Notes under the pieces: model-generated
Databases searched by the model: none
What the model was told of the DNA's origin: nothing
What the model saw: only the letters and a program-made list of their open reading frames with translations
From: Fibrobacteria bacterium
GTDB lineage: Bacteria; Fibrobacterota; Fibrobacteria; UBA11236
Length of the DNA: 64,000 nucleotides
Reading direction: 5' to 3'
Assembly (NCBI GenBank): GCA_039917895.1
Contig: JBDSIO010000219.1
Location: 78 to 64,077 of the forward strand
Program-made: the position numbers and the translations under genes
Shown here: positions 10,713-44,520 of the stretch, piece after piece
Position numbering within the stretch: the stretch's first letter is position 1
Layout of the letters: each line of letters opens with the position of its first letter

Positions 10713-10995
10713 AGGGTTTCCTCCTCCGTTTACGGAGGCGCAAATGATGGGCCATCCGCTCCGGTCCGGTCTTTCGGCCGTATTCCGACGGTTGCCCGCC
10801 CGATGGGCCGATTGCCCGGCCGTTTTCCGGTTCGGCGACACCGCTGGCCCGTGGTCCCGGCATAGACGCATGCGTGTTACGGTCATTTTGGCGTGACGGT
10901 TTGGCATTTTCGCCTTTCTGTCAGGGGCGCGGCGCGGGAATCGCGCGATTTTGCGCACGCGCGAACCCGGAGTGGATTTTGCTTGGGGATGAGGA

Positions 10996-13592: not shown

Positions 13593-15017
13593 ATGGACGG
13601 TCCCCGTGAGGAGAAGACCGCCATGGCGCCGGTATCGGGTTTGGAAATCATCCAGAAGTACAATTGGCAGGTCCCGCGCTACACGTCCTATCCGCCCGCG
13701 CCCTGCTTCACCCAAAGCCCGGATAACGCCAGGACCCTGGATCTCATCGACCGTTCCAACCAGGTGGGCGCCAAGCATGTCTCCCTGTATTTCCACGTGC
13801 CCTTTTGCCCCAAGCGTTGTCTTTTTTGCGGCTGCCACACGGAGATCGGCAGGCCCGGCGCGTACATCCGCAACTACATGGAAAGCCTGGGCCGCGAGCT
13901 GGATCTCCTTTTGCCCCGCCTGGATAGTAACCGTCCAGTTACCCAGGTGCACTTCGGAGGGGGCACGCCAAACGCCGTCCCCTACGGCTATCTGGACGGA
14001 TTGCTCCGCAAGATCGCAGCGTCGCTGAATCTCGAACCCAAGGCGGAAATCGCCATCGAGTGCGACCCCAACCTGCTCACCTTGGATCGCATCGGGGAAC
14101 TGGCCGGGATGGGATTCAACCGCCTGTCGATCGGCATCCAGGATTTCGATCCGAAGGTGCTGGAGGCGGTCAACCGCCGGTTCCCGAAAGTGGCCCCCAA
14201 GGAAATGTTCCGCCTGGCGCACGAGCACGGCTTCGCCGGAAACAACCTCGACCTGATTTATGGCCTTCCCTATCAGACCGCCGAATCCTTCCGTACCGCC
14301 ATCGATAAGGCTATCGACGCGGGTCCGGATCGGATCTCTTTGTTCCCCTACGCCCACGTGCCTTGGGTGAAGGGCCACCAGAGCAAGCTCCAGGCCTTGC
14401 CGATGGCCGGCGTGGAGGAGCGTCTGAAAATCGCCTGGGAGTCCAGGGAAAGCCTGATGGCTGCGGGTTTCGTCCCCATCGGCATGGATCATTTCGCCCG
14501 GCCCGGGGATGAGCTCGCCATCGCCGCGCGCACCCATGGGTTGCATAGGAACTTCCAGGGCTATTGCACGTCGGCCCGCGCGGGCCAGGTGTATGCGCTA
14601 GGGGCCTCGGCCATCAGCCAACTCCATGAGGGCTACATCCAGAACGTCAAGGATCTGGAGCGCTATTTCGCCGCCGTTAACGGGGGCAGGCTTTCCCACG
14701 AAACCGCCTACCGCATGCGGCCCCAGGACGTGGCGGTGCGCAACATCATCAATGGCCTGCTCTGCGACGGGGAAGCCCGCATCGCCGCCAGCCTCGATGC
14801 GGAAGGTCTTTCCGCGGAGTGGAAGGAAGCCTATCTGGCAACGGCCATGGCGAACCTGGCCCCGTTGTTGGCGGATCATCTCGCCGTTGTCGAAGGCGAT
14901 ATCGTGCGGCTGACCGCGGACGGGCATTACGCCTCGCGTGCCGTGGCCTCGGCTTTCGATCCCATGCTCAAGGCCAAGACCCCGCAGGACGCGCCGCGCT
15001 ATTCGCAGGCGTTGTAA
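13593..15017 (+). CDS. hemN: Oxygen-independent coproporphyrinogen III oxidase (radical SAM HemN)
   Basis: PRYTSYPPA...LYFHVPFCPKRCLFCGCH, then a HemN C-terminal domain. The alternative start at 13623 (MAPVSG) is equally likely. Confidence 0.85.
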   Translation: MDGPREEKTAMAPVSGLEIIQKYNWQVPRYTSYPPAPCFTQSPDNARTLDLIDRSNQVGAKHVSLYFHVPFCPKRCLFCGCHTEIGRPGAYIRNYMESLGRELDLLLPRLDSNRPVTQVHFGGGTPNAVPYGYLDGLLRKIAASLNLEPKAEIAIECDPNLLTLDRIGELAGMGFNRLSIGIQDFDPKVLEAVNRRFPKVAPKEMFRLAHEHGFAGNNLDLIYGLPYQTAESFRTAIDKAIDAGPDRISLFPYAHVPWVKGHQSKLQALPMAGVEERLKIAWESRESLMAAGFVPIGMDHFARPGDELAIAARTHGLHRNFQGYCTSARAGQVYALGASAISQLHEGYIQNVKDLERYFAAVNGGRLSHETAYRMRPQDVAVRNIINGLLCDGEARIAASLDAEGLSAEWKEAYLATAMANLAPLLADHLAVVEGDIVRLTADGHYASRAVASAFDPMLKAKTPQDAPRYSQAL

Positions 15018-19608: not shown

Positions 19609-19714
19609 AGATATTGGACCGCGGCATTGGTGCTGGCCGCGGCAGCGCGTATTCTCTGGCAATCCCGTTAACTCGAAGGTTACCAAGCTTCCGGAAGTCC
19701 GCGCCCCGCGGACG

Positions 19715-21257: not shown

Positions 21258-21266
21258 CCCGTCTCC

Positions 21267-22397: not shown

Positions 22398-22400
22398 GCC

Positions 22401-27064: not shown

Positions 27065-27443
27065 TGTCCTTATCGAGCAATTCCGAGGCCATTGCCATTT
27101 ACGCGCAATCGGGTCCGATTTCGCGGCGCGAACCGTAGTTCGGAATCCCCAATCCGGCATCTTGGCAAAATCGGCAATGAAACCGTGACATTGTTACCGG
27201 TAACCTGTACGTTTCGTTGGGATCGGCGCACAACCTCCAAAGCGGAAAAATCCGTTTGCATACCGCTGCCATCCGCGATTCTGAAAATGGGCGGCCGCCA
27301 TAGGGCGATTGGGAATAAAATCAAAGTTTCGATCTTTTTAATTTAAAACGTTATCGTGATCGCACTATTTGCAATCGACCCGGACGGGGATCCGGCCGGT
27401 CGGAAAGCATTCCCAACAATAACCCCGTTCCGCTGTTGTTGCC

Positions 27444-30498: not shown

Positions 30499-33400
30499 TC
30501 ATCCATGGCCGTGGAAATTCCCGGAAGCGGACCAATGGGTCATCGCCTGATCGATGTCCGCGGCATCCACCCGCGTCCTACCCTCGCCCTTGGCGCGGCG
30601 TTCGATTTCCTTCATTACCATGGGACGGATGAAGTCCGGGATGCGGGAAGTGCGGGCCGTGGCCGCTTCGCTCCACTCCAGCTCCGGCGCCATCTTGGCG
30701 GAGCCATCACCCCAGCTCCCGTATTTTCCGTCCATGATCTCCAGATCCACCACGTCCGCTCCTCCCGCGCGCGCCCATTTCTCGACGCGGCAGCGCGTCA
30801 TGGTGCGCATGAAGCCTTCCGGTACCCGTTCCAGCCTTTGCAGGGCTTCGGGTTTCCAGGCCAGGGTCTTGAAAGCGGAAGACTTGGCCTGGGCGCGCTT
30901 TTCCGCGCTCAAGCGGACGAAATGCCCGGTGCCGCAATTGGCGCAGACCGTCGGTTTGGCGCCGTCCAGGATAATGCCGCACAGGTGGCATTCCCAAGGA
31001 GCGATCTCCGAGGCATCGGAGGCTTCCGGCGTTGCGCTTGCCTGGGCGGAAGTTCGGGCCGGATCCGCGGAAGGGGTCGCGGCATGCGGGTTGGCGCCTT
31101 GGCCATGGGCATGCGGATTGACGCCATGGGCGTGGATATGACCATGCGCCCCGGGGTCTCCTTGGCCCGATCCCGTCATGCTTGCATGCATCTTCTCCCG
31201 GGCCTTGCCCAGCCCCGCTTCCGCCACCTCCAAGGTGATTTCCTTCGTTCCGGAGTTCAGGGCGTGTTCCTCCACCATGTTTTTCGCGGCCTTGCGCATG
31301 AATCCATCCGGCACCCGTTCCAGGCGCTTGACGGCATCTTCCGTCCAGGCCGGTCCTCCGAAGGCGTCGGAGGATATCGCCCCGGGCGCCGCTTCGGCGG
31401 CGGATACGGGGGCTGCGGGAGCAAGATCCGCGGTAGTGGGAACGGCGGTTGGCGCAGCGCCGATGCCGGCGGCGCGCAATTCGGCCTCCACCATCTCCAG
31501 GGTCACGGCCGTGATACGTTGGGTCAATGCCCGTTTTTCCAGGCGGTTGCGGATCTGCGCCGTCACCGTCGCATCCCCGGACTTTTCCAACAGGGCCAGC
31601 GCGGATTTCTCCCACATCAATTGCCGATCCCCCAGAGTTTCCAAGGACTGCCCTTCGCTGACGATGGCGCTTTCCAGCAGCTTGAACATATGCCCGCCCA
31701 TGCCGCAGATAGGGCAGGACTGGGGCCGGGATCCATGATGGACGTGGCCGCAGGCCTGGCATTTGAAGCTCAAGGCGATCTTGTCGTGGGAATCGCGCTC
31801 CTTGCCCTCGTCCGTGTCCACGATGCCCATGCGGGCCAGCGCAGCGGGAGGCAGCAGGGTTTTCAGGGCCGCGTTCAGGATCGACTCCGTGACCACGGTA
31901 TGGCCTTCGGCCACGCAATAGTTCTGGATCGCTTTCATCGCCATATTCTGCGCCATGGCCGGCACCCGTTGCATGCGGGCCTTGGCCTCGGTGGTCCAAC
32001 TCACGGTCTCCTCGGCCTGGAATTCCACCGGAGGCTTGGCCTTGGAATCCACCACCAATATGTTGCAGGGCGCCAGGCGGCACAGGTTCTCGGTGTTGCC
32101 GCCGATGTCCATGTCCTCGTCGCTATGGAAGCCGATACGGCCCACCACCAGCAGCCAGGGCGGCTCAGCCTTGACGAGCTGCAGGATCTTTTCGAAGGGT
32201 TTGCCATCCAACAAACGGATCTCGATGGCTACGCCCGCCTCTTCGGCCAGCCGCTTGGCGATGTTCAGGTAGGACTGGTAGATCTTGGCCAGCCCCGAGT
32301 CGATGATGTCTTCATGTAGCTTCTCCTGCTCTTCGAACTTGAAGACCTTACGCGCCTTTTCGGTGAGGGTCTTGTTCAGGCTTTTGAACATGGCATAATG
32401 GAAATAGGGGTCGAAGGCGGATACCGCCAGTACTTTCTTGTCCAATGTCTTCGCGAGCCGCATGGCCCGCTGCAGGCCGCCCCAGCTTCGGATGCTGCCG
32501 TCCAGGCAGACTATGATGGTGTCGGAGACGTTCTCTTCCACGGACATGCGCGTAAGCAGGACATCGCGGCGGACGCGGCGCAGCATGCGCTCGGCGACGG
32601 TGCCCAGTTGGGAATTGCCCACGCGGCCGACGCCGTGCGCGCCCAGGGCCACGAGATCGTAATCGTTGGCCGCGATGTCCTCGGCCATGGCCTTCCAATT
32701 CTTGCCTTCCAGGCTCACGGCGGCGAACTCCAGGTTATCGGTCTTGCAAGCGCCGGACATGGCCTCCAAATACGAGTCCGTGATCAGCTCCAGCCCTTTG
32801 GTGATCAGGCTGTCGTGGATCTTGCGCTGGCGGTTAAGTTCCTTCTCCTTCTGGAACTCCTCCGGAAGTCCGCCTTCCATGGCGCGGAAACGGTTGTCGT
32901 GCATCTTAGCCGCATACACGTGGCTGCCGATCATGCGGGCGCCTTCGCGCTTGCCGATCAGCATGGCCGTGCGCATGGCCTCGTTGGAAGGGACGGAACT
33001 GTCCAGGCCCACGTAAATGCGCGAGTATTTCCAGTCTACCGCCTTGGGCGCGGCTTCCCCATCGGGATGGGAGCCGGGCGCCTGGAAGGAGGGAACCGTT
33101 GCAGGGACGGCCTCAGCGGCCTCGGCAGCTATGGCGGTAACGGTGGCCGGGGCGGCCGCGGCGGCTATTGCAGACGGGGCGGAAGGGGCGGTTGCCGCAG
33201 CCGCCTCTAGGGTCGCGGCAGTTGCGGTCCCGGCGTCCTTCGGCCGCTCCAAAACCTCGCGGGCCTCCTTCATCAGTTCCATGGTGATGCGCGTGAACCC
33301 GCGCCCCTTGGCGTATTTTTCGATCTGCTCGGTGATGAACTGGCGGATCATGCCCGGGGCCCGGTTGATGGATTCAATGGCCTCGGGCTCCCATTCCATA

Positions 33401-34152
33401 CCGCCTTTGGAAGGCAGCATCACGATCTTACCGTCCTTTTCCGGAACCCGGAAAGGAGTCTTGTCGTGGATGGATGAGATCCAGAATACATAGGCGTAGG
33501 GGAATTCGTGTTGGGCGATATGGAAGCTGTCGTACTCGAACATTACGCGCGCCAGCTTCACGAATTCATGTCGCGGATCTTCCGGACCGATCACCTCCAC
33601 GGCCGCGTTGACCTGGAAGCTGATGTAGTCCGGGGCGTTGCCGGTATAGTGCAAAGCCGCCAGGGGCGTGGCCGAGATATTCCTGAAGGTGGTCTTTTCG
33701 AAAATCTCGAGGCTGCTCAGCGATCGGTAGTCGACCTTCTCCCGATCGAAATAGAAGCTGGAAACGGCTTTCAGCCTTTCCTGCAACGATTCCTGCCAGG
33801 GACGGCCGCGGGTGCGTTCAATCGTCTCCTTGAACAGGTTGACGTAGGATTCCAGGTATTCCCGCTTGGGCAGGAAGCCCACGCCTTTGTTGCCGCAATT
33901 GAACGGAAAGGTCTGGCCGCGCGCCTGGGTGATCATCACGGGCAGGTGCGAAGTGAAAAAGGCGGGATTCCCCTTTCCCAACAGCTTGTCGTACATGGCG
34001 CGGCGGCCTTGTTCGATCCACTCTATGTACCGCTCCGGCAGGCTTTCCATCGGCAGGTCGACCGGTCCCTCGGCCAGTTCCACGCGAAGGCGATCTCCTG
34101 CGACTACGACCTTGGGCAGGCCCTGAAATTGTCTGGCCGTATTCTGCTGCAT
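30499..34152 (-). CDS. 1217-aa multidomain protein: N-terminal ~270-aa unknown domain, six PCP_red-like repeats (protochlorophyllide-reductase ChlB C-terminal-domain-like), tandem universal stress protein (Usp) domains, two rubredoxin-like zinc ribbons, and Ala-rich and His-rich linkers
   Basis: Repeats of the form (L/M)xW(T/E)xEAxxRLxR(V/I)PxFxRxxxxxxxExxAxxxGxxxITxExxxxA occur six times (e.g. VSWTTEAKARMQRVPAMAQNMAMKAIQNYCVAEGHTVVTESILNA; PAWTEDAVKRLERVPDGFMRKAAKNMVEEHALNSGTKEITLEVAEAG). The Usp motifs are IYVGLDSS...GAHGVGRVGNSQLGTVAERMLRR and IIVCLDGS.... The zinc ribbons are CQACGHVHHG...CPICG and CHLCG...CANCG. There is an HGHIHAHGVNPHAHG His-rich segment. Confidence 0.7.
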   Translation of the reverse strand: MQQNTARQFQGLPKVVVAGDRLRVELAEGPVDLPMESLPERYIEWIEQGRRAMYDKLLGKGNPAFFTSHLPVMITQARGQTFPFNCGNKGVGFLPKREYLESYVNLFKETIERTRGRPWQESLQERLKAVSSFYFDREKVDYRSLSSLEIFEKTTFRNISATPLAALHYTGNAPDYISFQVNAAVEVIGPEDPRHEFVKLARVMFEYDSFHIAQHEFPYAYVFWISSIHDKTPFRVPEKDGKIVMLPSKGGMEWEPEAIESINRAPGMIRQFITEQIEKYAKGRGFTRITMELMKEAREVLERPKDAGTATAATLEAAAATAPSAPSAIAAAAAPATVTAIAAEAAEAVPATVPSFQAPGSHPDGEAAPKAVDWKYSRIYVGLDSSVPSNEAMRTAMLIGKREGARMIGSHVYAAKMHDNRFRAMEGGLPEEFQKEKELNRQRKIHDSLITKGLELITDSYLEAMSGACKTDNLEFAAVSLEGKNWKAMAEDIAANDYDLVALGAHGVGRVGNSQLGTVAERMLRRVRRDVLLTRMSVEENVSDTIIVCLDGSIRSWGGLQRAMRLAKTLDKKVLAVSAFDPYFHYAMFKSLNKTLTEKARKVFKFEEQEKLHEDIIDSGLAKIYQSYLNIAKRLAEEAGVAIEIRLLDGKPFEKILQLVKAEPPWLLVVGRIGFHSDEDMDIGGNTENLCRLAPCNILVVDSKAKPPVEFQAEETVSWTTEAKARMQRVPAMAQNMAMKAIQNYCVAEGHTVVTESILNAALKTLLPPAALARMGIVDTDEGKERDSHDKIALSFKCQACGHVHHGSRPQSCPICGMGGHMFKLLESAIVSEGQSLETLGDRQLMWEKSALALLEKSGDATVTAQIRNRLEKRALTQRITAVTLEMVEAELRAAGIGAAPTAVPTTADLAPAAPVSAAEAAPGAISSDAFGGPAWTEDAVKRLERVPDGFMRKAAKNMVEEHALNSGTKEITLEVAEAGLGKAREKMHASMTGSGQGDPGAHGHIHAHGVNPHAHGQGANPHAATPSADPARTSAQASATPEASDASEIAPWECHLCGIILDGAKPTVCANCGTGHFVRLSAEKRAQAKSSAFKTLAWKPEALQRLERVPEGFMRTMTRCRVEKWARAGGADVVDLEIMDGKYGSWGDGSAKMAPELEWSEAATARTSRIPDFIRPMVMKEIERRAKGEGRTRVDAADIDQAMTHWSASGNFHGHG

Positions 34153-34203: not shown

Positions 34204-35493
34204 CTATTTGAAATGGAAGCCGAGTTCGGCTTCCCGTTCGCGCTTATGGCGCGTCATCAATTCCGGAGTTACGGGTACGCCTTCGGTCCGGGCCCGCGCC
34301 TCCAACTTCCGTTTCACCACCGGCCTCAGGAACAACGGCAGCTTGGACAGCCGTTCCCGCGCTTCGGGGGTCCATACGACTTCCGTGTCCCCGTCCGGTT
34401 TCCGCACCGGTATGATCGCGCCCCCGGCCGGCTCGTATTCACAGCTGGGGTCTTCCGCCATGAGATTTCCCTTGGCCAGGGATCGGGCCCGGCAGCCCCC
34501 GCACACCAGCTTGTATTCGCAACCGCCGCAACGGCCCTCCAGCAGGGCCGGATTGCGCATGGAGGCCAGCAGCACCGAGTCGTCCCAGATCTTCCAGAAA
34601 CCGTCCCGTCGTACATTCCCGGCGGAAAGTTCCATGTACGGGCAAGGGGTGATCTCCCCTTTGGGGGTGATGCGGCAATAATGGCTGCCCGCCAGGCAAC
34701 CGCCGCCGTCGTAACCTTCGGCGCGCGTGTAGGGCGATGCGGGATCGGCTTGATGGAGGATGCGCTTGAAATGGGGCGTGCAGCGCGTTTGCACCAGGAT
34801 GCCTTTGGCCGTGGGTTGGATGGCGGCGATTTCCTTGAGCGCGGCTTCATATTCCGCGGCCGAGAGATCCATGGAGCCTTCGCCCCGGCCCACGCAGACC
34901 AGGAAGAAGAAATTGATGATGGACGCGCCGAGTTCGCGGGCCATGTCCACGGCTTGCGCAATCTCGCTCCGGTTCCATCGCGTTATCGTGAAGTGGATCT
35001 GGGCATGCATGCCGGCCGCGCGGCAATGTTTTACCGCCTCGCAAGTCCTGGCGAAAGCGCCGGGCATGCCCCGGAAAGAATCGTGGGCGCCGGGACGGAT
35101 GGAGTCCAGGCTGATCCCCATGCCTTCCAGGCCCGCCGCCCTGAGTTCCTCCGCGCGCTTGCGGTTCACCAGCACCCCGTTCGTGCCCAGCACCATCCGC
35201 AGACCCGCCTCCACTCCGGCCTTGACGAACCCGTCCAGGCCCGGATGCAACAGGGGTTCGCCTCCGGTGAGCACGATGATGGTACCCGGCGCCCGCGCGC
35301 CGATGTCGCGGAACAGGGATGCGACCTCCTCATCGGCCATCTCCCCGTCCATGACCGACGCCCGTTGGGTGGCGTCCATATAACAATGGGCGCAATTCAG
35401 GTTGCAACGCCGGGTCAGGTTTACGGCCACCAGGTACGGTTCAAACTCCCGCTCCCCGCGCCGTTCTTCCTTTTTTCCCGTTTCCATCGGCAA
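34204..35493 (-). CDS. Radical SAM / SPASM-domain enzyme (AhbC/NirJ/PqqE-like) with a C-terminal PCP_red-like domain
   Basis: CNLNCAHCY (CxxxCxxC). The SPASM Cys-rich region is GGGCLAGSHYCRITPKGEITPCPYM...CGGCEYKLVCGGCRARS. The C-terminal VVWTPEARERLSKLPLFLRPVVKRKLEARARTEGVPVTPE matches the repeat family in the adjacent 1217-aa protein. Confidence 0.75.
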   Translation of the reverse strand: MPMETGKKEERRGEREFEPYLVAVNLTRRCNLNCAHCYMDATQRASVMDGEMADEEVASLFRDIGARAPGTIIVLTGGEPLLHPGLDGFVKAGVEAGLRMVLGTNGVLVNRKRAEELRAAGLEGMGISLDSIRPGAHDSFRGMPGAFARTCEAVKHCRAAGMHAQIHFTITRWNRSEIAQAVDMARELGASIINFFFLVCVGRGEGSMDLSAAEYEAALKEIAAIQPTAKGILVQTRCTPHFKRILHQADPASPYTRAEGYDGGGCLAGSHYCRITPKGEITPCPYMELSAGNVRRDGFWKIWDDSVLLASMRNPALLEGRCGGCEYKLVCGGCRARSLAKGNLMAEDPSCEYEPAGGAIIPVRKPDGDTEVVWTPEARERLSKLPLFLRPVVKRKLEARARTEGVPVTPELMTRHKREREAELGFHFK

Positions 35494-35524: not shown

Positions 35525-36241
35525 TTAATACTCGAAGGCGACTTTCGCGTCCTTGCCCGCTTCCACCTTCACCTGCACGGTTTTCGCGCCCAGGGCCTCA
35601 TGCCAGATCTTCAACGTATAGGTTCCCGCGGGCACGTCGGCCAATATGAACTCCCCGGCCGGTCCGGTCACCGCCGCGTAGGGATGCGGCAAGGCCCAGA
35701 TGTATCCCTGCATGAAATCATGGGCATCGCACTCCACCGAGATCAGGCCTTCCTTGCGGAGGATTTTGGTGTTTTCCACGACCTGGCCCTTCTTAGGCAG
35801 CGCCATGTTGATCAGGTTCTTCTTGGCCGCGCCGTCCACCAGGTAGAAGTGCGAATTGTGGAGCATGTCGTCGTCGTTGCGCACTTTCAGGGTCGCGCCC
35901 ACCGGGGCCACAAGTACGTGGGGAGTGAACTTGCAATTGGTGTTGTCGTAGAAGATTTCGCCTGCCGCGGCTTTCTTGCCTTCCGCAATCTTGTCGATCA
36001 TCACCACGGCGAATTGGAGGCCGCCGCCCGCTCCCGTCACGTATTTTTGGGCCGCGATCTTGGCGCCGCACTGCTCCGGATTCTTGCTGACCACTTTCAT
36101 CTCGTCCGCCGGGGCCTTCCCTTTGATCTTGATGGCCCCGCTGATGCTGCCGCCGTTGGCGACGGCGATCTCCTTGTATTGCGCCGAGGCCGCCACGGCT
36201 CCGGCCAGCATGAACGCGCATAAGGTATTGATGGTTTTCAT
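35525..36241 (-). CDS. Periplasmic cupredoxin-like (type 1 copper) protein
   Basis: Signal peptide MKTINTLCAFMLAGAVAASA (RBS AACGGAGGA before the ATG at 36241). Candidate copper ligands are H in MLHNSHF and the C-x2-H-x2-M motif (VECDAHDFMQG), as in amicyanin/pseudoazurin. Confidence 0.5.
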   Translation of the reverse strand: MKTINTLCAFMLAGAVAASAQYKEIAVANGGSISGAIKIKGKAPADEMKVVSKNPEQCGAKIAAQKYVTGAGGGLQFAVVMIDKIAEGKKAAAGEIFYDNTNCKFTPHVLVAPVGATLKVRNDDDMLHNSHFYLVDGAAKKNLINMALPKKGQVVENTKILRKEGLISVECDAHDFMQGYIWALPHPYAAVTGPAGEFILADVPAGTYTLKIWHEALGAKTVQVKVEAGKDAKVAFEY

Positions 36242-36281
36242 TTCGATCCTCCGTTTTGGGATGGGTTTTCCATGGCTGGGC

Positions 36282-37394
36282 TCAGAAGAAGACATGCAGC
36301 CTTCCCACGATCTGGTTCTGGTTGTCCGCCGTGCTCTGAGGTATCCAATCGTTTTTCCGGTAATACAATCCCACCTGCAGGAATTGCATGATGAAGGGTT
36401 CGACGCCTACCACCACGCGGGTCTGATTGCTTTGCGCCTGGGGGATTGCCGTATTGCGCCAGAAGGACTCGTAGGTGACCTTGAAATTAAGTCCCTGCAT
36501 GGGCAGGAAGTCGACCTCGGTGTAGTCCTCGACCTTGTCGATGCCCTCATCCTTGGTGTAGTCGCGCTCCCCCAGGATGGTGAACATGCCCAAGGTGGTG
36601 CCGGCGAAAACGCCGTAAGATCCTTTGGTTTCCTTGAATTCCTTGGTAAGTTCCTTACTGTAGGAACCGCCCAGCCTGACGGTGCGCAGCACGGGCACTT
36701 CCCTGAACACGAAGGAGCCGACGCTCATCCATTTGGTCTGGGTGATGGAACTGACCAGGGACAGCGGCCCGGGTTCGAATCCCATTTCGTATGCCAGGGC
36801 CGTGGAACTGTAAGTGTAGCCGGTGAAGTTGCGCACGAAGGCATCATCGTCCATGAGCCGGTATCCGTATGGAAGCAGCATCTGGCCGAATTTCAAGTAG
36901 CTGTTGGCGGGCAGGGAAATCATGCTCCAGAGTTCGCGGAAGCCGCCTGCGGACATGTCCTTGTCGTAGTAAAGCTTCAACCGATCCTTGATCAGATCCA
37001 TCTCCACGTATAGGTTCTTCTCCTTGAAGGTGCCGGCGTTCCAGTTCCCCTCCACCATGCGCGCCGAATCCCCGGGGTTGGCGGGTTTGGTGGTGAACTG
37101 GCGGAGATACGCCTGTTCGATGCGGAAATTCGCACCCAGGGAGACGGAGTTGTTCAGCTTCGGATCGAAGGAATTGAGGTTCTTCTGCGCGAGTGTGGAA
37201 GCCACCAGCAGCTTGTATTGCGTATACACCTCTCCGAACTCGGTCCGCTTGCCGCCCCCCGTCCGGTTTACGTGGCATTGGCTGCATTTGAATCCCGTTC
37301 GGACGGCGATATAGGGCTCGGCGGAAACCAATCCGGTGGCCAGCAGGAACACGATCGCGATAGGTTTCCAGGGCATTGACGTTGACCGTTGCAT
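36282..37394 (-). CDS. Fused monoheme cytochrome c / outer-membrane beta-barrel (Cyc2-like cytochrome-porin)
   Basis: Signal peptide. A single CSQCH motif within about 15 residues of the predicted mature N-terminus. The remaining ~330 aa form alternating amphipathic beta-strands ending ...GRLHVFF (C-terminal Phe). This architecture matches Cyc2-type iron oxidases. Confidence 0.45.
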   Translation of the reverse strand: MQRSTSMPWKPIAIVFLLATGLVSAEPYIAVRTGFKCSQCHVNRTGGGKRTEFGEVYTQYKLLVASTLAQKNLNSFDPKLNNSVSLGANFRIEQAYLRQFTTKPANPGDSARMVEGNWNAGTFKEKNLYVEMDLIKDRLKLYYDKDMSAGGFRELWSMISLPANSYLKFGQMLLPYGYRLMDDDAFVRNFTGYTYSSTALAYEMGFEPGPLSLVSSITQTKWMSVGSFVFREVPVLRTVRLGGSYSKELTKEFKETKGSYGVFAGTTLGMFTILGERDYTKDEGIDKVEDYTEVDFLPMQGLNFKVTYESFWRNTAIPQAQSNQTRVVVGVEPFIMQFLQVGLYYRKNDWIPQSTADNQNQIVGRLHVFF

Positions 37395-37402
37395 ATCCGC
37401 GC

Positions 37403-38134
37403 CTAGTTCCTTCCCGTGATCCAGGTTTTAATGGTTTGGATGTCCTCGTCGGAGAGGGGCGCCGCCGCTTCGGCCGGCATCCTTACGCCGTAGGGCGGGG
37501 TCGCCTTGAAGATCTTCAGGAACAGGTAGCTGCTGTCCGGTACCCCCGGCAGCACCCGCATCATATTGATGTTTTTTACCGTCAGCATCTCGATCGACTT
37601 GATGTTGACCAGGCTGTCCCACGCCGCGCCCGATTCCAGAGTCAGCCTGGTTTGCATAAATCCGGTGCCGCCGGGCTTGATGTGGCATTTCTCGCAATGG
37701 GTCTTGAAGATGGGCAGCACGTTGGCCGTGAAAAAAGCCCGGTCCAGGCACTCCACCGGCTTGGGGAGCCTGGAACAATCGATGCAGCGCGAGGGAGGAT
37801 TGGGGAGTAGGCAAGAGTCCACTGCCACGCAACGCGCGGGAGGATTGGGCAAAGCGCAGGAATCGGGCACAGCGCAGCGCGCGGGGGGATTGGGGAGCAG
37901 GCAAGAATCCACCGCCAGGCAACGCGCGGGAGGATTGGGCAGAGCGCAGGAATCGACGACGCAGCCGGCTGAGGCGGGATTCGCGATGCAGGGATTCGGC
38001 TTGATGAGAGCTCCGCCGGCGGTCAGACCCACGCCGTCTCCGGCTTTCATGCAGGCGATGAACAGGGCGGGAATAACGATGGCAGCCGCCAGCAGTCGGG
38101 ATTTCCCGCGCAGCCCTTGTTGCAAGCGGTTCAT
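37403..38134 (-). CDS. Lipoprotein c-type cytochrome with five tandem Cys-containing 14-15-aa repeats
   Basis: Lipobox (ALFIAC). Repeats DSC(A/L)LPNPPARC(L/V/A)AV occur five times, followed by a class I cytochrome c domain with CEKCH. It overlaps the downstream cytochrome gene (ATGA-type coupling at 38131-38134). Confidence 0.6.
   Translation of the reverse strand: MNRLQQGLRGKSRLLAAAIVIPALFIACMKAGDGVGLTAGGALIKPNPCIANPASAGCVVDSCALPNPPARCLAVDSCLLPNPPARCAVPDSCALPNPPARCVAVDSCLLPNPPSRCIDCSRLPKPVECLDRAFFTANVLPIFKTHCEKCHIKPGGTGFMQTRLTLESGAAWDSLVNIKSIEMLTVKNINMMRVLPGVPDSSYLFLKIFKATPPYGVRMPAEAAAPLSDEDIQTIKTWITGRN
37790..37975. repeat. Coding tandem repeat (~42-45 nt unit, 5 copies) inside the lipoprotein cytochrome gene
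   Basis: Repeated cgcgcgggaggattgggcaaagcgcaggaatc-like units are visible on the + strand and encode the Cys-Pro-rich peptide repeats. Confidence 0.6.
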
Positions 38135-39153
38135 GGCGTCACCTCCGTGTCTTTCGTGAACAGGATGAAAAAGGGATTCGGCTTACGGATCAGGGAGCGG
38201 ATGTAATGGACCAAGGCCCATTTCCTTTTTTCCCCAAGGGCGTTCCGCTGTTCGGCCGGCATTTTTTGCAACGCTGCTTCCGTCGGTTGGGTGAGCAGCC
38301 AAGCCTGCAACTGATCGATTTCGGCGGCCGGATAGGCTTCCTTGTACTTGACCGGATCCACCGTAGCGTCTCCGGAAATGAGGAAACCGTCGAGAGCGTA
38401 GGCGGGCATGGGCGTGCCGTTGAGGCCGGTGGTGAAGGTGCGGTACAGGGTCCCGGCGTCGTTCCCCGCCTTGTAGCGATACGCGGTCAGGTTCCAGGGG
38501 AGGATTTTGCGGCCCCAGTCATCGTCCAGGGTCTTACCGGATTTCCCATCGCCTTTGCCGGAGCCGCCGTGGCAGGCCCAGCATTCCATCAGCATGTACA
38601 CCAGCTTGCCCTCCTTTACCGCTTGCGGAGTACTCTCGGGAACCGCGGGAACCTCCATGGGGGAGGGCGCGCCTTCCTTGAAATCCGGAGAAAAAGTCTT
38701 GAGGAAGGCGACCACGTCCAGGCGCTCCTGCAGGGTAAGAGTCGTCCCCCAGGCCGGCATCTGCGTTCCCGGAACCCCTTTTTCCACGATGGCCAGCAGA
38801 TCCGCATCGGTGGGCAGCTCTCCGCTCGGGGTCGAACGGAATTTGAACATGCCCGCGGTGAAATCGCGCGGCCGCGGATTCAGGTATTGGCCCGCGGCGC
38901 TCCGGCCGTCGCCGTTTTCGCCATGGCAGGCCGCGCAGGATTTGGAGTAGACGGCTTCGCCCCGGGACAGGGAAGGCGATGACAAAGCCGCCTGGGCGGG
39001 CCCGGAGGCGGCGCTTGCCCCGTGTAATGCCACGATGGCGGCAAAACCGATCGCCCGCGAAAGACGGCCGGACAGGTTGAGGGGATAGGCATTCAAGATG
39101 TACCTCCCGTTTCTCTCATTCATGGGTGGATACCACATCAAATTCCATACCAT
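38131..39153 (-). CDS. Periplasmic diheme c-type cytochrome
   Basis: Signal peptide. CAACH and CWACH motifs. Alternative starts at 39138/39123. Confidence 0.65.
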   Translation of the reverse strand: MVWNLMWYPPMNERNGRYILNAYPLNLSGRLSRAIGFAAIVALHGASAASGPAQAALSSPSLSRGEAVYSKSCAACHGENGDGRSAAGQYLNPRPRDFTAGMFKFRSTPSGELPTDADLLAIVEKGVPGTQMPAWGTTLTLQERLDVVAFLKTFSPDFKEGAPSPMEVPAVPESTPQAVKEGKLVYMLMECWACHGGSGKGDGKSGKTLDDDWGRKILPWNLTAYRYKAGNDAGTLYRTFTTGLNGTPMPAYALDGFLISGDATVDPVKYKEAYPAAEIDQLQAWLLTQPTEAALQKMPAEQRNALGEKRKWALVHYIRSLIRKPNPFFILFTKDTEVTP

Positions 39154-39312: not shown

Positions 39313-40845
39313 CTAACGCTTGGATGCGGCGGCGCGCCTGCGCAGGAACCAGATGAGACCGGCTTCCAGCACGATGGCCAGGGCGGCCCGCTTCGAAGCC
39401 GGGGCCAGGGGATTCTCCGCGCGGGCCGGCTTCAGGTACAAGGTAAACCAGGAGGTTACCCCACGGGAGCTGCCCGTCTCGCGCGACAATCCGTCCCAGA
39501 CGGAAAAAGCGATGGGCGCGAAGCCTCCGGGCTCGAAGGCATACCGTCCAGGCTCGGACCGTTTGCGCGTGAACACGGCCCACCATTCCCCGTCCGCATA
39601 ACCCGCGTCGACGCTGATCGTTCCGGGAATCCGCGCCAGGTTTCCCGCGCCCTTAGCCGCATAAACCTCACCCGTATCCGTGCCGAGATCGCGGAACCAG
39701 AGCTCGGCGGGATTCCGCTTGTCGCCGGAAAGGAAGTAGGGTTTACCCGCCCCTTCGATGGCCTTGCCGGGAATCTGAATGGCGATGGCATCGGAAAATA
39801 CCGCCCCGGAATCGCTGCCGGCCGCGTCAATGGGACTATTGGCGCCTTTGCGTTGCGCGCTCATATCGTGCCAGGAGACCAGCACGGAAACGTAGTCGCT
39901 ATCGTAAACGGCCCTCACCTCCACGGCGTTGGCCGCTGGAAAGAAATCCCTGCGCGCTTCGATCACCTGGCCGACCACGGGGAACAAGGCCGGCTTCGCA
40001 CGGGTGAAGGCGTCTCGCCCCGGCTTGGATCCCAATTCGCCGGGAACGGCCTCGGCCGTCACCAATGAAGCGTATCCGGGTTCGTCGCCGGGACTCAGCG
40101 AATGGATGTAGTCGACCAAGGCCCAGCGATCCTTTTCCTCGATGGAGGCCGTGTAGCTGGGCATTGGCGTGCCGTTGAGCCCGGTCATGATGGTGCGGAA
40201 GATATCCTCGCGCCGGGGCCCGCCGCGGAAGGTCCAACGCCGCGTCAGATCCGCGGGCCGGATGGCGTGGCCCCAATCGTCGTTCAGGGTCGGTGCGGAC
40301 TCCCCGTCGCCGCGGCCCAGCTTGCCATGGCAGTCCATGCATTTGTTCTCGACGAAGAGTTTGCTGCCCCGCTCCGCCGATTCCTTGCTGAAAGCCGGAG
40401 GCTTAACAGCGGCGATGGGTTTGGGGTGGTTGGCGGTATCGGCGAAATCGGAATTGAAGCCCTTGATGAAGGCGACGAGATCGCCAAGCTCTTCTTCGGA
40501 AAATTCCGGCCAGGCCGGCATACCCGTATAGGGCATGCCGCTCCGGATGATGGATTTCAGATCCGCATCGGTGGGAGATTCCCCGCTTTCCGTGGTGCGG
40601 ATTTTGAACGATCCCGAGGTGAAATCGCGCGGCAGCGGCCGGAAGAACTCCGCCCCGTCCCCCTTGCCCTCGCCGCCCGTACCATGGCATTGGGAGCACT
40701 TGTCCAGGTAGATGGCCTTGCCCGCCGCGGCCCGGGCATCCGTAGCCGGCGCGTCCGCCGCGCGCGCAATGGGAGCGTAGGAAAGCGCGGCCGAGATCAC
40801 ACCCGCGAGGGCGAGGGTAGCGGAAAGCCTGCGATGGGTATTCAT
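39313..40845 (-). CDS. Membrane-anchored diheme cytochrome c fused to an EB_dh-like heme-b domain (NxrC-like gamma-type subunit)
   Basis: Signal peptide. CSQCH and CMDCH motifs. The C-terminal half has EB_dh-like segments (VRAVYDSDYVSVLVSWHD..., AIAIQIPGK, PYFLSGDKRNPAELWFRDLG, FSVWDGLSRETGSSRGVTSWFTLYL). A C-terminal TM helix AALAIVLEAGLIWFLRRR follows. Confidence 0.55.
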   Translation of the reverse strand: MNTHRRLSATLALAGVISAALSYAPIARAADAPATDARAAAGKAIYLDKCSQCHGTGGEGKGDGAEFFRPLPRDFTSGSFKIRTTESGESPTDADLKSIIRSGMPYTGMPAWPEFSEEELGDLVAFIKGFNSDFADTANHPKPIAAVKPPAFSKESAERGSKLFVENKCMDCHGKLGRGDGESAPTLNDDWGHAIRPADLTRRWTFRGGPRREDIFRTIMTGLNGTPMPSYTASIEEKDRWALVDYIHSLSPGDEPGYASLVTAEAVPGELGSKPGRDAFTRAKPALFPVVGQVIEARRDFFPAANAVEVRAVYDSDYVSVLVSWHDMSAQRKGANSPIDAAGSDSGAVFSDAIAIQIPGKAIEGAGKPYFLSGDKRNPAELWFRDLGTDTGEVYAAKGAGNLARIPGTISVDAGYADGEWWAVFTRKRSEPGRYAFEPGGFAPIAFSVWDGLSRETGSSRGVTSWFTLYLKPARAENPLAPASKRAALAIVLEAGLIWFLRRRAAASKR

Positions 40846-41654
40846 TCCGCGCGCTCCTGGGCCCTGGGTTTCTGCCCCGTGAACCGGTAGAGGAATAGGA
40901 TGACGTCCCAGATTTCATCCTCGGAAAGGAATTTCTCCCAGGCCGGCATCGCCGAGGCCCAAGGAGTAGACTCTTCGGGAAGGCCCGGACCTCCCTTCGC
41001 GATGCGCCAGAAGAGGTAGGACTCCTGCAACATGGCGATGGTGGTGGGATCCTGGAAATTGGCGGGCAGGGGATCGAAGCCGTGGGAATGGATGCCGTCC
41101 CCTTTCAGGTTGTCCCCGTGGCAGAACACGCAGTTCCGGTAATACACCTTGCGGCCGTCCGCCACGTGCGCGTCGAAGGCCGCCGCATCCTTGTCCTCCA
41201 GCTCCCGAAAGGGATTCGACGCCGTGAGCAGGTTGATCTTCTTGCCCTTGAAATCCATCTCCCCCGGCGGGGCGGGATGGATGGTGCGCGCATTTGCCGG
41301 GGCCGCCACCTCCCGCGAGGCGTCTCGGTAGGCCGCGTAGCCGGCCAGCAAAGGGATGATCGCGGCCAAGGTCCAGAGCAACGGGGCGAAACGCCGTTCC
41401 GTAAAGAAGCGCAGCAGGGCAAGCGAAGCCGTGCGCAAGCGTCCCGAATCCGCCGAGAGATAGATGAGCAGCACGGCCGTGAGCACGGCCAGGTATAGGC
41501 CGATGATGGACGAAGGCAGCGGCGGCGTCAACGCGTAATTCAAGACCAGGAAGAATCCCGACCACCAGGCCCCCATCCAGACGAGGATGGGCGGCTTCAG
41601 GAAGCGCAGTCCTATCAGCACCAGCAGAACGGGCCCGAGTATCAGCAGGTTCAC
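40842..41654 (-). CDS. Polytopic membrane protein with a C-terminal monoheme cytochrome c domain
   Basis: Four predicted TM helices followed by CVFCH. Its start overlaps the upstream gene's stop and its stop overlaps the downstream gene's start. Confidence 0.6.
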   Translation of the reverse strand: MNLLILGPVLLVLIGLRFLKPPILVWMGAWWSGFFLVLNYALTPPLPSSIIGLYLAVLTAVLLIYLSADSGRLRTASLALLRFFTERRFAPLLWTLAAIIPLLAGYAAYRDASREVAAPANARTIHPAPPGEMDFKGKKINLLTASNPFRELEDKDAAAFDAHVADGRKVYYRNCVFCHGDNLKGDGIHSHGFDPLPANFQDPTTIAMLQESYLFWRIAKGGPGLPEESTPWASAMPAWEKFLSEDEIWDVILFLYRFTGQKPRAQERAE

Positions 41655-42469
41655 CGCTTCCCCCTTTGCGCGGAAAGGTACGCGACCATGGCCTTGATGT
41701 CCCCGGCGGAGGTCTTGTCGTAGAATCCCGATGCCTTGAGCGTATTGGCCATCAGGCCCTTGGGATATCCCTTGGGCGTTACCGCATCCGGATCCATGAT
41801 GGATTCGGAGATCAGGCTGGGTTTGAGACGCTTGCCGACATCGAAGAGACTGGGGCCCACCAGCTTGCCGGGCTGATCCAGCCTATGGCAACCGGCGCAT
41901 CCGTTAACGGTCAACAACTCCTTGGCGGTCCTGGGGACCGTGGTTGCCGCGGAAGCGGCCGGGGCGGCCGGACCATCATTTGCGACCGTACCGGAGGGCG
42001 AAAACGCGTGACGGGTCAGCATAGTGACGTTCGGCGTACCGCCCAGGCTTTGCAAGTAGGCGATCACGGCCATGATTTCCCCGTCGGAAAGATTGATGGG
42101 CGGCCCATGGATGGGGGGCATGCCGGGGCTGTAGCCTTCGACGATGAAAGCGTTGGGTTCGTAGATGGACTGGGCCAGGTACTCCACATCCGACATTCCC
42201 GGCCTTTGCTTGCCGGCGCGGGCGCCGATGCCGCCCAGATCCGGGAACCGCCCGGGCTTGTCCGATCCGATGGTATGGCAGCCCAGGCAGGTGCCCTTAC
42301 CGCCCACGATTTCCTGGCCGGCCTGGACCAGGTCATCCGTGGTCATGTCCGCACGTACCTCCAGATCCTTGGGAGGGTGGACCTCCTTCTGCGGGACCAT
42401 CTGCCCGATGTAGGCGTAGAACGCCGTGACCAGCACGGTGAAGAGGATGATCTTCAATACGTTGATCAT
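41651..42469 (-). CDS. Membrane-anchored diheme c-type cytochrome
   Basis: This is the real 272-aa gene embedded at the C-terminal end of the artifactual 695-aa track ORF. It starts MINVLKIILFTVLVTAFYAY (TM helix), then CLGCH and CAGCH. Its ATG at 42469 overlaps the upstream gene's TGA (ATGA). Confidence 0.6.
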   Translation of the reverse strand: MINVLKIILFTVLVTAFYAYIGQMVPQKEVHPPKDLEVRADMTTDDLVQAGQEIVGGKGTCLGCHTIGSDKPGRFPDLGGIGARAGKQRPGMSDVEYLAQSIYEPNAFIVEGYSPGMPPIHGPPINLSDGEIMAVIAYLQSLGGTPNVTMLTRHAFSPSGTVANDGPAAPAASAATTVPRTAKELLTVNGCAGCHRLDQPGKLVGPSLFDVGKRLKPSLISESIMDPDAVTPKGYPKGLMANTLKASGFYDKTSAGDIKAMVAYLSAQRGKR

Positions 42470-44520
42470 GGCGCCGCCTCCTTCCCCGTGTCCCAATCCT
42501 TGCGGCCCGAAAGGCTGGTGAGCCAGAAGACGATGGAGATGAAGGCGAAGAAGATCAGCACCGTCACCGACACCACGATGGAGGCGAACCCCAGGGTGGG
42601 CGTGAAGGCGTCGACGGATTCGTCCCGCATCACCCCGTAGACGTGCCAATGCTGGCGGATGCCGGAGCGGACGTAGCCCATCAGCCCCATCAGCCAGGTG
42701 AAGGTGATGGCGATGAGGATCAGCGCGTATTGCGAGCGCATCGGCATTTTCCCCCAGCGGATTTCGCCCGTGGTGCGCGCGTTGCGGAACATGAAAATGT
42801 CGATGACGGTCACGGAGATCATGGCCGTGAGCACCGAAGCGACCTGGGGGACGGAAAGCCGGATGCGCACCTTGGCTTCCACGAAATAGCCCAGCACGCC
42901 CAGGGCGATCACAAAGAGCGCGGTGAGGGCGAAAATCAGGAACTGGGCCAGGTTGCCTTTGGCGGCCCAAGGCGCGATGGATCGCTTGTTGCCCCGGCGG
43001 TAGAGCAGGAAGCTGACATAGGTGGTCAGGATCAGGATGTTCACGGCGGTGTTCTTGGCCGACATCACTCCCAGCACGCCCAGGGCGGGATGATGCGCGC
43101 CGCCCATCTTGCGCGCCTCCTCCACGGTAGCCACCAGGGAATGCGGCGTCGCCCACACCAGGAAGCACACCGTGATCGAGCCCAGCAGCCATTTGATGAA
43201 CTTGCGGAAGCGTTCCGCCCCTTCGATGCGTTCCATGCCCAGCCACAGGTAATAGTTGGCGGCCAGGAACAGGGTGCCGATCAACACCGCCTGGATGATG
43301 AAAAGCCAGGAGAAAGCGCCGCCCATCAGGGTCATGCCCATGTTCTGGGAATAGGCGTAGATCTCCTTGCCCAGCCAATACCCCGCGAAAGGCAGCGGGA
43401 GCAGGGCGCTGATGGCGATGAAGTTTCCGATGTACCCCATCCAGTCGTAATGGGCCCGTTCCTCGTCCGTCTTGGCCCCCATGAACTTGAAAGCGCCGTA
43501 AGCTCCCGCGATGGATCCGCCGAAGGCGATATTGGCGATCAGACGATGCACGTTGATGGGCATCCAGGTGAAGTTGTGCACCGCCTGCCAGCGGTTGACC
43601 AGTTCGCCCGACTGGGTGATTCCATTGGGGGAATTCATGAAGGTGAGCCACGCATCCGCGATGCAGATGATGGCGACCCCGACCAGGTTGAGGCAGACGC
43701 CGAGGGCCAGGTGCACGCGCGGATGGAACTTTCCCCAACCGTAATAGTAGGCGTACATGAAGATGGCCTCGGCGAAGAACAGGGCTACATAAGGCATGAA
43801 GGTCCAGCTGAAGATGGAGACCAGGTAGGCGGTCAGTTTGGGATACAGAATCAGTAGCATAAAGGTGAGCATCGCGCCCAGGGAGGCCGTGAACGAAAAG
43901 GACGTGGACAGCAGCTTGGTGAATTCATGGGCGAGATGATCGTATTTGCGATCCTTGGTGCGGTACCCGATGTATTCGATGGTCAAGGCGAACATGGGCA
44001 CCGCCAGCACGAAGGCGGCGAACATCAAATGCAGCTGGGCCACGATCCAGATGGCCACGCGGCTGCCGATGACCGGGAACCTGCGGTAAGCGGGTTCGGA
44101 GCCGGGTTTGGTATTCGCGTAAACCTTGGGCGGCTGCGCAACCGGCGCGCCTGGAGCATGGGCCTTGAGTATCCAGGTCACGATGGTAGTGATGTCCTCG
44201 ATGGAAAGCGCGGGATGGGCCGGCATGGGCACGGCGCCCCAGGCCCCCGCGCCTCCGGCATGCACCTTTTCCGCCAATCGGGCGATGTCGGCCGTACCGT
44301 ATTTCGCCGCGATTTCCTTGAAGGCGGGTCCCACCACCTTATGGTCCGGCTGATGGCACACGAGGCAATCGCTCTGCTTCATCAATTCCTGGGCATTCTG
44401 GGCCTTCTGGGCCTTCACGGCCTCCTCACCCCCTGCCGGCGCGGCTCCGAGACACAGCAACGCCAACAGCGCCGCCAACCGCCAAGCAAAGCGTTTCCGG
44501 CGGATGATTCCCTGATCCAT
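42466..44520 (-). CDS. Cytochrome c551/c552-like domain fused to a cytochrome bd-like (CydA-related) polytopic membrane protein; putative novel terminal oxidase or quinol-interacting module
   Basis: 684 aa. Signal peptide. CLVCHQPDHKVVGPAFKEIAAKYG...IVTWIL is a class I cytochrome c domain. At least 12 TM helices follow, similar to the cytochrome bd subunit I family. It is the first gene of the array. Confidence 0.65.
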   Translation of the reverse strand: MDQGIIRRKRFAWRLAALLALLCLGAAPAGGEEAVKAQKAQNAQELMKQSDCLVCHQPDHKVVGPAFKEIAAKYGTADIARLAEKVHAGGAGAWGAVPMPAHPALSIEDITTIVTWILKAHAPGAPVAQPPKVYANTKPGSEPAYRRFPVIGSRVAIWIVAQLHLMFAAFVLAVPMFALTIEYIGYRTKDRKYDHLAHEFTKLLSTSFSFTASLGAMLTFMLLILYPKLTAYLVSIFSWTFMPYVALFFAEAIFMYAYYYGWGKFHPRVHLALGVCLNLVGVAIICIADAWLTFMNSPNGITQSGELVNRWQAVHNFTWMPINVHRLIANIAFGGSIAGAYGAFKFMGAKTDEERAHYDWMGYIGNFIAISALLPLPFAGYWLGKEIYAYSQNMGMTLMGGAFSWLFIIQAVLIGTLFLAANYYLWLGMERIEGAERFRKFIKWLLGSITVCFLVWATPHSLVATVEEARKMGGAHHPALGVLGVMSAKNTAVNILILTTYVSFLLYRRGNKRSIAPWAAKGNLAQFLIFALTALFVIALGVLGYFVEAKVRIRLSVPQVASVLTAMISVTVIDIFMFRNARTTGEIRWGKMPMRSQYALILIAITFTWLMGLMGYVRSGIRQHWHVYGVMRDESVDAFTPTLGFASIVVSVTVLIFFAFISIVFWLTSLSGRKDWDTGKEAAP

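Follow-up and report, generated by a model that had tools for sequence, protein, structure and literature searches.

An adjoining pair of genes in a Fibrobacteria bacterium, coding for two otherwise dissimilar proteins that share one small domain, raises the question of what the two products act upon and whether they act together. The pair lies on contig JBDSIO010000219.1 (GenBank assembly GCA_039917895.1), of which 64,000 nucleotides (positions 78 to 64,077, forward strand) were analysed; this whole stretch is called the window here, and all coordinates refer to it. One gene (34204..35487, minus strand) encodes a radical SAM/SPASM enzyme (rSAM) with a C-terminal PCP_red domain, and the other (30499..34152, minus strand) a protein of 1217 aa, hereafter the partner, that consists of a split-barrel domain, a PCP_red unit, tandem Usp domains and a further PCP_red array with rubredoxin-like knuckles, as delineated with Pfam and a hidden Markov model (HMM) of the repeats. 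We see an even chance that the rSAM is a heme-directed, oxygen-independent enzyme of AhbD type which, together with a dedicated Usp/PCP_red partner, serves a co-encoded respiratory complex. Taken alone, the direction of the enzyme towards a tetrapyrrole is more probable than that, and a physical partnership of the two proteins less probable. Judged by the open-access literature, the clade-defining PCP_red tail, the Usp/PCP_red partner and the link to bd-like clusters and HemY-type genes are new, while the enzyme class itself is known.

The open reading frame (ORF) of the rSAM spans 34204..35493 on the minus strand, the TTG at 35493 being merely its upstream limit. The public gene call takes the ATG at 35487 as start, for a product of 427 aa, which matched P0001, a “radical SAM protein” of a Fibrobacteria metagenome-assembled genome, with 100% identity and coverage. 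Its radical SAM core (residues 22-182; 34942..35424, minus strand; Pfam PF04055, E 2.4e-24) carries the motif C28-x3-C32-x2-C35. The SPASM domain was detected by Pfam at residues 264-323 (E 3.5e-7), inside an eight-cysteine region for two auxiliary clusters that extends from C236 to C349 (34441..34782, minus strand) with the spacing CX27CX17CX37CX2CX5CX2CX16C. According to the alignments, all of these cysteines (C236, C264, C282, C320, C323, C329, C332 and C349) and the three of the core motif are present and invariant in the family, and the completeness of the set exceeds chance by far. The first-pass annotation of this DNA had proposed a radical SAM enzyme of the tetrapyrrole-modifying group with a full SPASM region, and on both points the domain searches, the cysteine count and the best-scoring family models agree with it. 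The AlphaFold model of the protein is confident (AF2, mean pLDDT 88.1; 88-96 in the tail), with a less confident linker before the tail. Searched against the PDB, it matched only generic SPASM enzymes, since the PDB holds no AhbD structure.

As for the kind of radical SAM enzyme, the best NCBIfam models were NirJ2 (TIGR04055, 290.5 bits) and AhbD heme b synthase (TIGR04545, 289.7 bits), where NirJ2 is presumably the Firmicute name for AhbD. They were followed by an uncharacterised family (230 bits), AhbC (171), NirJ (170), models of maturases for ribosomally synthesised and post-translationally modified peptides (RiPPs; 131 or less) and PqqE (105). No model reached its curated cut-off with the rSAM, those being 500 bits for AhbD/NirJ2, 515 for NirJ (TIGR04051) and 650 for AhbC; the homologue from Endoriftia gave 317 and 322 bits with the AhbD/NirJ2 models. 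With AhbD/NirJ2 of Methanosarcina barkeri, Desulfovibrio vulgaris and the Firmicutes the rSAM has in common, besides this best curated score, the CX3CX2C motif and a near-identical spacing of the eight SPASM cysteines. In AhbD, two auxiliary [4Fe-4S] clusters are bound by the full SPASM motif, published as CX20-33CX17CX36-37CX2CX5CX2CX17-35C (PMC10452713), and the rSAM fits it in all but the last spacer, which is one residue short of the range (X16 against X17-35). NirJ of heme d1 synthesis and AhbC belong to the same superfamily branch of SPASM enzymes that modify tetrapyrrole side chains, but their models score far below the respective cut-offs, and neither nir d1 genes nor NirS were found among the neighbours of the rSAM that were scanned with Pfam. 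By its sequence the core is AhbD/NirJ2-like, i.e. of the heme b synthase type, and not PqqE- or AhbC-like. The initial description of the core as AhbC/NirJ/PqqE-like therefore stands at the level of the superfamily and has to be narrowed to AhbD/NirJ2 (290 bits against 171, 170 and 105 bits).

The relatives of the core point the same way. With the core alone as query, 795 proteins out of 1.84 billion representatives were matched at E <= 1e-30. Among the best 150 of these matches (50%-identity representatives), almost all with more than about 250 bits carried PCP_red and those below were devoid of it; the tail-less relatives scanned were all AhbD/NirJ2-like, one of them exceeding the NirJ2 cut-off. 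It should be added that 21 of the 150, which are among the nearest tail-less relatives of the rSAM, are AhbD-like enzymes fused to AhbA and/or AhbB siroheme decarboxylase (P0207, P0209, P0219, P0227, P0235, P0267 and others). These fusions score 366-498 bits and hence likewise remain under the AhbD equivalog cut-off. Because evident heme-pathway fusions miss it, this cut-off is strict and overlooks real pathway members, and a score beneath it does not exclude AhbD-like chemistry. Placement of the core in a tree, which had been advised at first pass, was done by neighbour-joining only and without distant outgroup. Among 137 cores, the PCP_red-tailed sequences formed a separate clade of 36 leaves among AhbD-like sequences (bootstrap 42/60). 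Four of its leaves had no detected tail: one seems to break off where the core ends, and P0175 has a histidine-kinase ATPase domain in place of the tail. NirJ2-type sequences appeared as the sister of the tailed clade in one neighbour-joining tree, and the grouping was dropped for its bootstrap of only 3/60. The tailed clade itself was thus recovered, whereas no supported sister was.

The SPASM region could, alternatively, be that of a protein or peptide maturase, which would set a crosslink or another modification on the co-encoded cytochromes, the cupredoxin or a small precursor and use PCP_red as a substrate- or chaperone-recognition element; RiPP-like maturation had also been among the first suggestions. 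Such a role would fit the predicted SPASM fold, which in the structure search resembles PqqE, SuiB and anSME, and the position of the gene within an operon of exported redox proteins. PqqE-PqqD and MftC-MftB likewise present a SPASM enzyme beside a protein thought to form a complex with it. PqqD and MftB, however, are peptide chaperones of the RiPP recognition element (RRE) kind, whereas the element shared by the rSAM and the partner is PCP_red and no peptide substrate is evident. The radical SAM core begins at residue ~20, and the protein has no RRE or PqqD-like domain. There is no room for a precursor gene either, the gaps on both sides being 37 and 51 nt (median 25 nt across loci), and the precursor-like ORF looked for in the neighbourhood did not emerge, as nearby small ORFs were compositional junk and none was plausible. 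Furthermore, the RiPP maturase models stay at 131 bits or less versus 290 for AhbD/NirJ2, the nearest relatives are fused to siroheme decarboxylase, and the adjacency to HemY-type genes described below would be left unexplained. We consider a maturase highly improbable.

What sets the rSAM apart from AhbD/NirJ2 proper, besides its score and its separate clade, is the tail, missing from the tail-less AhbD-type relatives examined, and its surroundings, since it was never found beside AhbA, AhbB or AhbC and instead adjoins Usp/PCP_red, HemY-type and bd-like oxidase genes. The C-terminal PCP_red unit occupies residues 372-413 (34249..34374, minus strand; Pfam PF08369, E 6.2e-10) and scores 39.4 bits against a Pfam gathering cut-off of 32.5. 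Residues 370-409 read VVWTPEARERLSKLPLFLRPVVKRKLEARARTEGVPVTPE, and W372, A376, L380, P384, F386 and R388 are invariant or near-invariant in the family alignments. The partner is encoded by the next gene downstream of the rSAM stop (34204), on the same strand and after a 51-nt gap, and its PCP_red match is much stronger (E 1.4e-50, 169.5 bits over five Pfam stretches). In concordance with the first-pass annotation, tail and neighbour repeats are hence the same domain, above the gathering score in both proteins. Of the six copies counted there in the partner, five are clear; the one starting at residue 845 is decayed, lacks the P-x-F-x-R motif and was found only by the HMM built from the repeats themselves.

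The partner begins with a PNPOx-like split beta-barrel (~residues 1-245; 33418..34152), assigned by structural match to split-barrel proteins; its predicted fold is of the HupZ/PNPOx-like kind, which binds flavin or heme. The N-terminal ~300 residues exist as a separate protein (~305 aa) in SAR324 and Nannocystaceae. There follow PCP_red unit 1 (residues 252-297; 33262..33399), recognised by Pfam and modelled with high pLDDT as a beta-alpha-alpha-beta-alpha module, and tandem Usp (~residues 380-701; 32050..33015; Pfam PF00582, E 2.8e-26, 2 stretches). A putative Usp ATP motif, GAHGVGRVGNSQLGT (G-2x-G-9x-G-[ST]), stands at residue 504 and recurs in 58 of 62 partner orthologues. PCP_red units 2-6 (30538..32004; Pfam and repeat HMM) start at residues 717, 845, 934, 1097 and 1158. 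Two CxxC...CxxC rubredoxin-like knuckles are situated in this array at residues 798 and 1055, one of them recognised by Pfam (RUBY_RBDX, E 5.5e-7) and the second by eye, and such a knuckle occurs in 19 of the 62 orthologues. All these features are on the minus strand.

Whether tail and partner belong together was assessed across genomes. More than 120 protein clusters have the architecture rSAM + SPASM + PCP_red. A scan of 185,579 species genomes gave 581 rSAM relatives, and the loci analysed were the best 80 matches to the query, not a random sample; with additions there were 84 loci in total, 82 of them non-redundant, and their neighbours were annotated partly by HMMs built from window proteins. 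The best 80 loci came from Nitrospirota, Nitrospinota, anammox Planctomycetota, Methylomirabilota, gammaproteobacterial sulfur oxidisers, Zeta- and Alphaproteobacteria, SAR324, Myxococcota, Gemmatimonadota, Latescibacterota and others. The rSAM tail was kept in 84/84 loci, with one PCP_red unit in 61, two in 3 and three in 18, and was confirmed by Pfam in representatives from Endoriftia, Brocadia and Anammoxibacter. A second PCP_red protein was located within 400 bp of the rSAM in 60 of the 82 non-redundant loci, 53 of which had tandem Usp in it. Partner orthologues adjoin the rSAM in Fibrobacterota, SAR324, Gamma- and Alphaproteobacteria, Nitrospirota, Methylomirabilota, Myxococcota, Latescibacterota, Gemmatimonadota and Planctomycetota. 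Between the partner stop codon and the start of the conserved rSAM core the median distance is 25 nt. The gene order varies, with the rSAM first in Fibrobacterota (the window) and SAR324 and the Usp partner first in most others, e.g. Proteobacteria and Nitrospirota, and the close adjacency, in which stop and start codons often overlap, is kept in both orders. The dedicated partnership postulated at first from the shared domain has comparative support in this recurrence over about a dozen phyla; the tail is indeed standard for the clade, but the contexts in which the clade occurs are related ones.

The initial view of the tail as one more copy of the neighbour repeat needs a correction, though. 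While the domain is the same, the nearest unit to a rSAM tail unit in other loci was another rSAM tail unit in 77 of 81 cases, and identity was 43% within rSAM tails versus 33% to partner units. Since the units are positionally orthologous, the tail is an old, separately kept element rather than a recent copy of the neighbour repeats.

The shared domain might nevertheless mean something else: PCP_red could be an independent module that binds a ligand, either a tetrapyrrole or an acidic electron carrier, without any contact between rSAM and partner, the Usp protein then being a regulator of the operon products. The same ~45-residue module is known from the C-terminal domain of BchB/ChlB (PF08369), where, as in the rSAM with its presumed substrate, it is attached to an iron-sulfur enzyme acting on a tetrapyrrole, and from the stand-alone small proteins Asr4154 (PDB 2L09) and 2KRU. 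These occurrences are compatible with an independent module, as are the many conserved Arg and Lys residues of the PCP_red units, the tailed anammox rSAM without partner, and the Usp proteins beside low-O2-induced operons of Nitrospira marina, which were read as regulators (PMC8115632). In contrast to BchB/ChlB, the carrier is here a radical SAM enzyme, and the Usp protein has the module in 2-6 copies. A C-terminal helix of BchB covers the substrate (PMC4071322), but it is not clearly PCP_red and was not used as evidence here. A module of this kind would not account for the tight adjacency, often with overlapping stop and start, that is kept in both gene orders, a pattern typical of subunits. 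Moreover, PCP_red units seem to be redistributed between both proteins, the counts for rSAM and partner being 3+4 in Gammaproteobacteria, 1+6 in the window and 3+1 in Nitrospinota. We therefore think it rather unlikely that the domain acts independently in the two proteins, and return to a complex of rSAM and partner as the preferred reading.

Further evidence for a heme-related function, besides the HupZ/PNPOx-like fold of the partner N-domain, comes from the neighbouring genes. In 32 of 82 loci the rSAM has next to it a gene for a HemY-type porphyrinogen oxidase (TIGR00562, 227 bits; cut-off 97.85). The window has its own HemY-type gene (9285..10958, minus strand; TIGR00562, 195 bits, same cut-off of 97.85) as well as HemN, the oxygen-independent coproporphyrinogen III oxidase (13593..15017, plus strand; TIGR00538, 389 bits against 325). 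Both are ~20 kb away from the pair, whereas in an 80%-identical locus (L085) they follow the partner within a few kb, the HemY-type gene at a distance of ~2.7 kb. A block of NXR-like and molybdenum-cofactor genes (16-28 kb) is missing from L085 at this place and thus looks inserted between the partner and the HemY/HemN block of the window. The heme-related cluster at 9285-15017 also comprises an MnmL/YtqA tRNA radical SAM gene and a cytochrome c gene between HemY-type gene and HemN, in the same order as beside the pair in L085. With regard to further neighbours, in 14 loci the HemY-like gene is succeeded by that of a membrane-anchored protein of ~110 aa. A HEAT-repeat protein of ~800 aa, CpcE/NblB-like (bilin-lyase type), is part of the modules of Gamma- and Alphaproteobacteria and SAR324 (L001/L003 and others); the window has none.

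The plainest explanation for these heme genes would be that the rSAM is an ordinary housekeeping orthologue of AhbD, the O2-independent coproheme decarboxylase of a coproporphyrin-type pathway, that its tail docks a general reductant such as ferredoxin, and that the respiratory neighbours reflect nothing but heme demand. The label “AdoMet-dependent heme synthase” given to several family members by the Joint Genome Institute (JGI) and the HemY-type adjacency would agree with it. So would the anammox gene, which stands alone and codes for three PCP_red units; anammox bacteria are strict anaerobes with very high heme demand. AhbD is, besides, known from organisms with the coproporphyrin-dependent pathway in which the other Ahb enzymes are missing (review PMC13564367). 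A housekeeping enzyme, on the other hand, would not be expected to keep a Usp/multi-PCP_red neighbour (60/82 loci) and clusters with bd-like, EB_dh or cupredoxin genes (25/35) across a dozen phyla. The module is also carried by many Gamma- and Alphaproteobacteria, although HemQ and AhbD are largely missing from Proteobacteria, whose classical pathway makes no coproheme (PMC5095920), and the window has HemN too. Housekeeping AhbD is, in our opinion, unlikely, albeit the least unlikely of the alternatives to the preferred reading of a heme-directed enzyme with its own partner.

The same absence of coproheme from the classical pathway would give the HemY-type adjacency in Proteobacteria a sense, provided that the module needs a coproporphyrin route of its own; we regard this adjacency as suggestive. 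The proposed step from coproheme to heme b and the HemY-type neighbour mirror the last steps of the coproporphyrin-dependent pathway, performed there by ChdC/HemQ and CgoX/HemY. ChdC/HemQ differs in being a protein unrelated to the rSAM, whose proposed chemistry would be oxygen-independent, and a coproporphyrin ferrochelatase is not in the module.

Several observations weigh against the preferred reading. The rSAM is far below the AhbD/NirJ2 equivalog cut-offs (290 versus 500 bits), so that its function may have diverged from that of AhbD, and the trees give the tailed clade no supported sister group (3/60). The HemN and the HemY-type enzyme encoded in the window mean that heme b could be made without AhbD. 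A ferrochelatase was a module member in only 1 of 84 loci, which is a gap in the picture, and an AhbA/B-like ORF was found neither in any of the 84 loci nor in the window; the source of coproheme is thereby unexplained. In Brocadia-type anammox bacteria and some Nitrospinota and Planctomycetota the tailed rSAM is flanked by unrelated genes and has neither a Usp/PCP_red partner nor a bd-like cluster nearby, so neither association is obligatory. Finally, even for BchB, PCP_red has no established role.

What the pair may serve is indicated by its surroundings. From 44520 down to 28313 the genes form one minus-strand string with short gaps and without intergenic terminator-like sites; the terminator and promoter scans were at chance level and are usable only to say that nothing interrupts the string. 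In the order of transcription it consists of a cytochrome c-bd-like oxidase subunit, three cytochromes c (one EB_dh-fused), a further cytochrome c, a Cys-repeat protein, a Cyc2-like candidate, a cupredoxin-like protein, the rSAM, the partner, a porin and a hemerythrin. The cytochromes and the cupredoxin, which were initially stated to be encoded downstream of the rSAM, are in fact upstream of it. First in the string is the cytochrome c fused to bd-like oxidase subunit I (42466..44520, minus strand; Pfam Cyt_bd_oxida_I, E 1.2e-20), which is of the OR-N type, a bd-like family with a published description (bioRxiv 10.1101/2021.01.16.426971). It is followed by two cytochrome c genes assigned by Pfam (40842..42400, minus strand; the start of the second is uncertain) and by a dihaem cytochrome c fused to an EB_dh (haem b) domain (39313..40845, minus strand; Pfam), a recurrent neighbour of the rSAM family. 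The gene 37 nt upstream of the rSAM (35525..36295, minus strand) encodes a periplasmic cupredoxin-like protein whose C-terminus is CarboxypepD_reg-like and which is probably identical with the cupredoxin known from NXR clusters. The gene co-occurs with the rSAM in 32 of 82 loci, and the type-1 copper-like motif CDAHDFM is kept in all 37 of 37 such homologues next to the rSAM family.

The linkage is not confined to the window. Flanks of 6 kb or more to both sides were available in 35 loci. The bd-like subunit was encoded in 18 of them, EB_dh in 13, the cupredoxin in 18 and an NxrA-like protein in 7, and at least one of these in 25. Endoriftia, SAR324 and other lineages have the pair embedded in the same gene set. 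The window string and the nearby NXR-like genes match the OR-N bd-like clusters of Nitrospira, Nitrospina, anammox bacteria and Manganitrophus (Murali et al.; Luecker et al.), and the nxr cluster of Kuenenia lists a uspA. In their open-access text, the papers on the OR-N oxidase, Manganitrophus, Nitrospina and N. marina are silent on any radical SAM or PCP_red component, and nothing relevant was found in open-access text that would link PCP_red/PF08369 or bd-like to radical SAM, or AhbD to anammox bacteria or Nitrospira.

Taking these data together, we propose the following mechanism. By analogy to AhbD, the cytoplasmic rSAM would most likely take hydrogen from the propionates of an iron-tetrapyrrole, followed by O2-free oxidative decarboxylation; the substrate may be coproheme, converted to heme b or a close variant, and the two auxiliary [4Fe-4S] clusters would carry the electron away. 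The PCP_red units would hold rSAM and partner in one complex. The partner could be a nucleotide-gated scaffold and/or a device for hand-off of electrons or tetrapyrrole, the routes considered being ATP sensing, electron transfer via flavin or rubredoxin, and transfer of substrate or product. The pair would in this manner supply or mature heme for the co-transcribed complex of bd-like oxidase, cytochrome c-EB_dh and cupredoxin. A more far-reaching version, which we judge doubtful and a shade less probable than an independent PCP_red module, is that the tailed rSAM, the Usp/PCP_red partner and, in Proteobacteria, a private HemY-type oxidase form a heme side branch. This branch would make or deliver the active-site cofactor of OR-N bd-like oxidases and EB_dh cytochromes, an iron tetrapyrrole of non-standard kind such as a coproheme derivative that is decarboxylated in part or some other modified heme, with PCP_red as the tetrapyrrole hand-off domain.

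For more than a decade there has been discussion about the bd-like (OR-N) clusters that nitrite oxidisers, anammox bacteria, manganese oxidisers and many sulfur oxidisers possess, with cofactors and function still unsettled. A radical SAM protein of heme-synthase type and a Usp/PCP_red protein that travel with these clusters across phyla offer a handle on which heme is involved and who makes it. The pair also represents a first recurring context of PCP_red outside chlorophyll synthesis, and an AhbD-type enzyme in Proteobacteria, where such enzymes were thought to be largely missing.

Three exported proteins are encoded between the EB_dh fusion and the cupredoxin-like gene (36282..39153, minus strand): a cytochrome c, the Cys-repeat protein and the Cyc2-like cytochrome-porin candidate. 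The latter (36282-37394, minus strand; 370 aa) has a signal peptide and one CxxCH at residue 37 but no Pfam match, a layout as in Cyc2-type cytochrome-porins of iron oxidation, and its homologues were found only in the close relatives L005 and L085. The exported Cys-repeat protein (37403-38134, minus strand; 243 aa) contains four copies of a Cys-rich unit, “C(A/L)LPNPPARC”, which go back to a 45/90-bp tandem repeat in the DNA (37784-37957), and then a weak cytochrome c-like domain.

On the other side of the pair, the region 16340-25880 codes for a periplasmic NXR/Nar-like set, namely a TAT-signal NxrA-like protein (1159 aa), an NxrB-like protein, an EB_dh NxrC-like protein and a NarJ-like chaperone, in addition to MoeA and MoaA. 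A putative ORF for 309 aa without Pfam match (26231-27160, minus strand) separates the NxrA-like gene from that of a CRP/FNR-like regulator. Beyond the opposite end of the string, an NnrS-family membrane protein is encoded divergently beside the bd-like oxidase gene (44901-46175, plus strand), likewise in L085; the gene after it specifies a class II ribonucleotide reductase with a TSCPD domain (46263-49742, plus strand).

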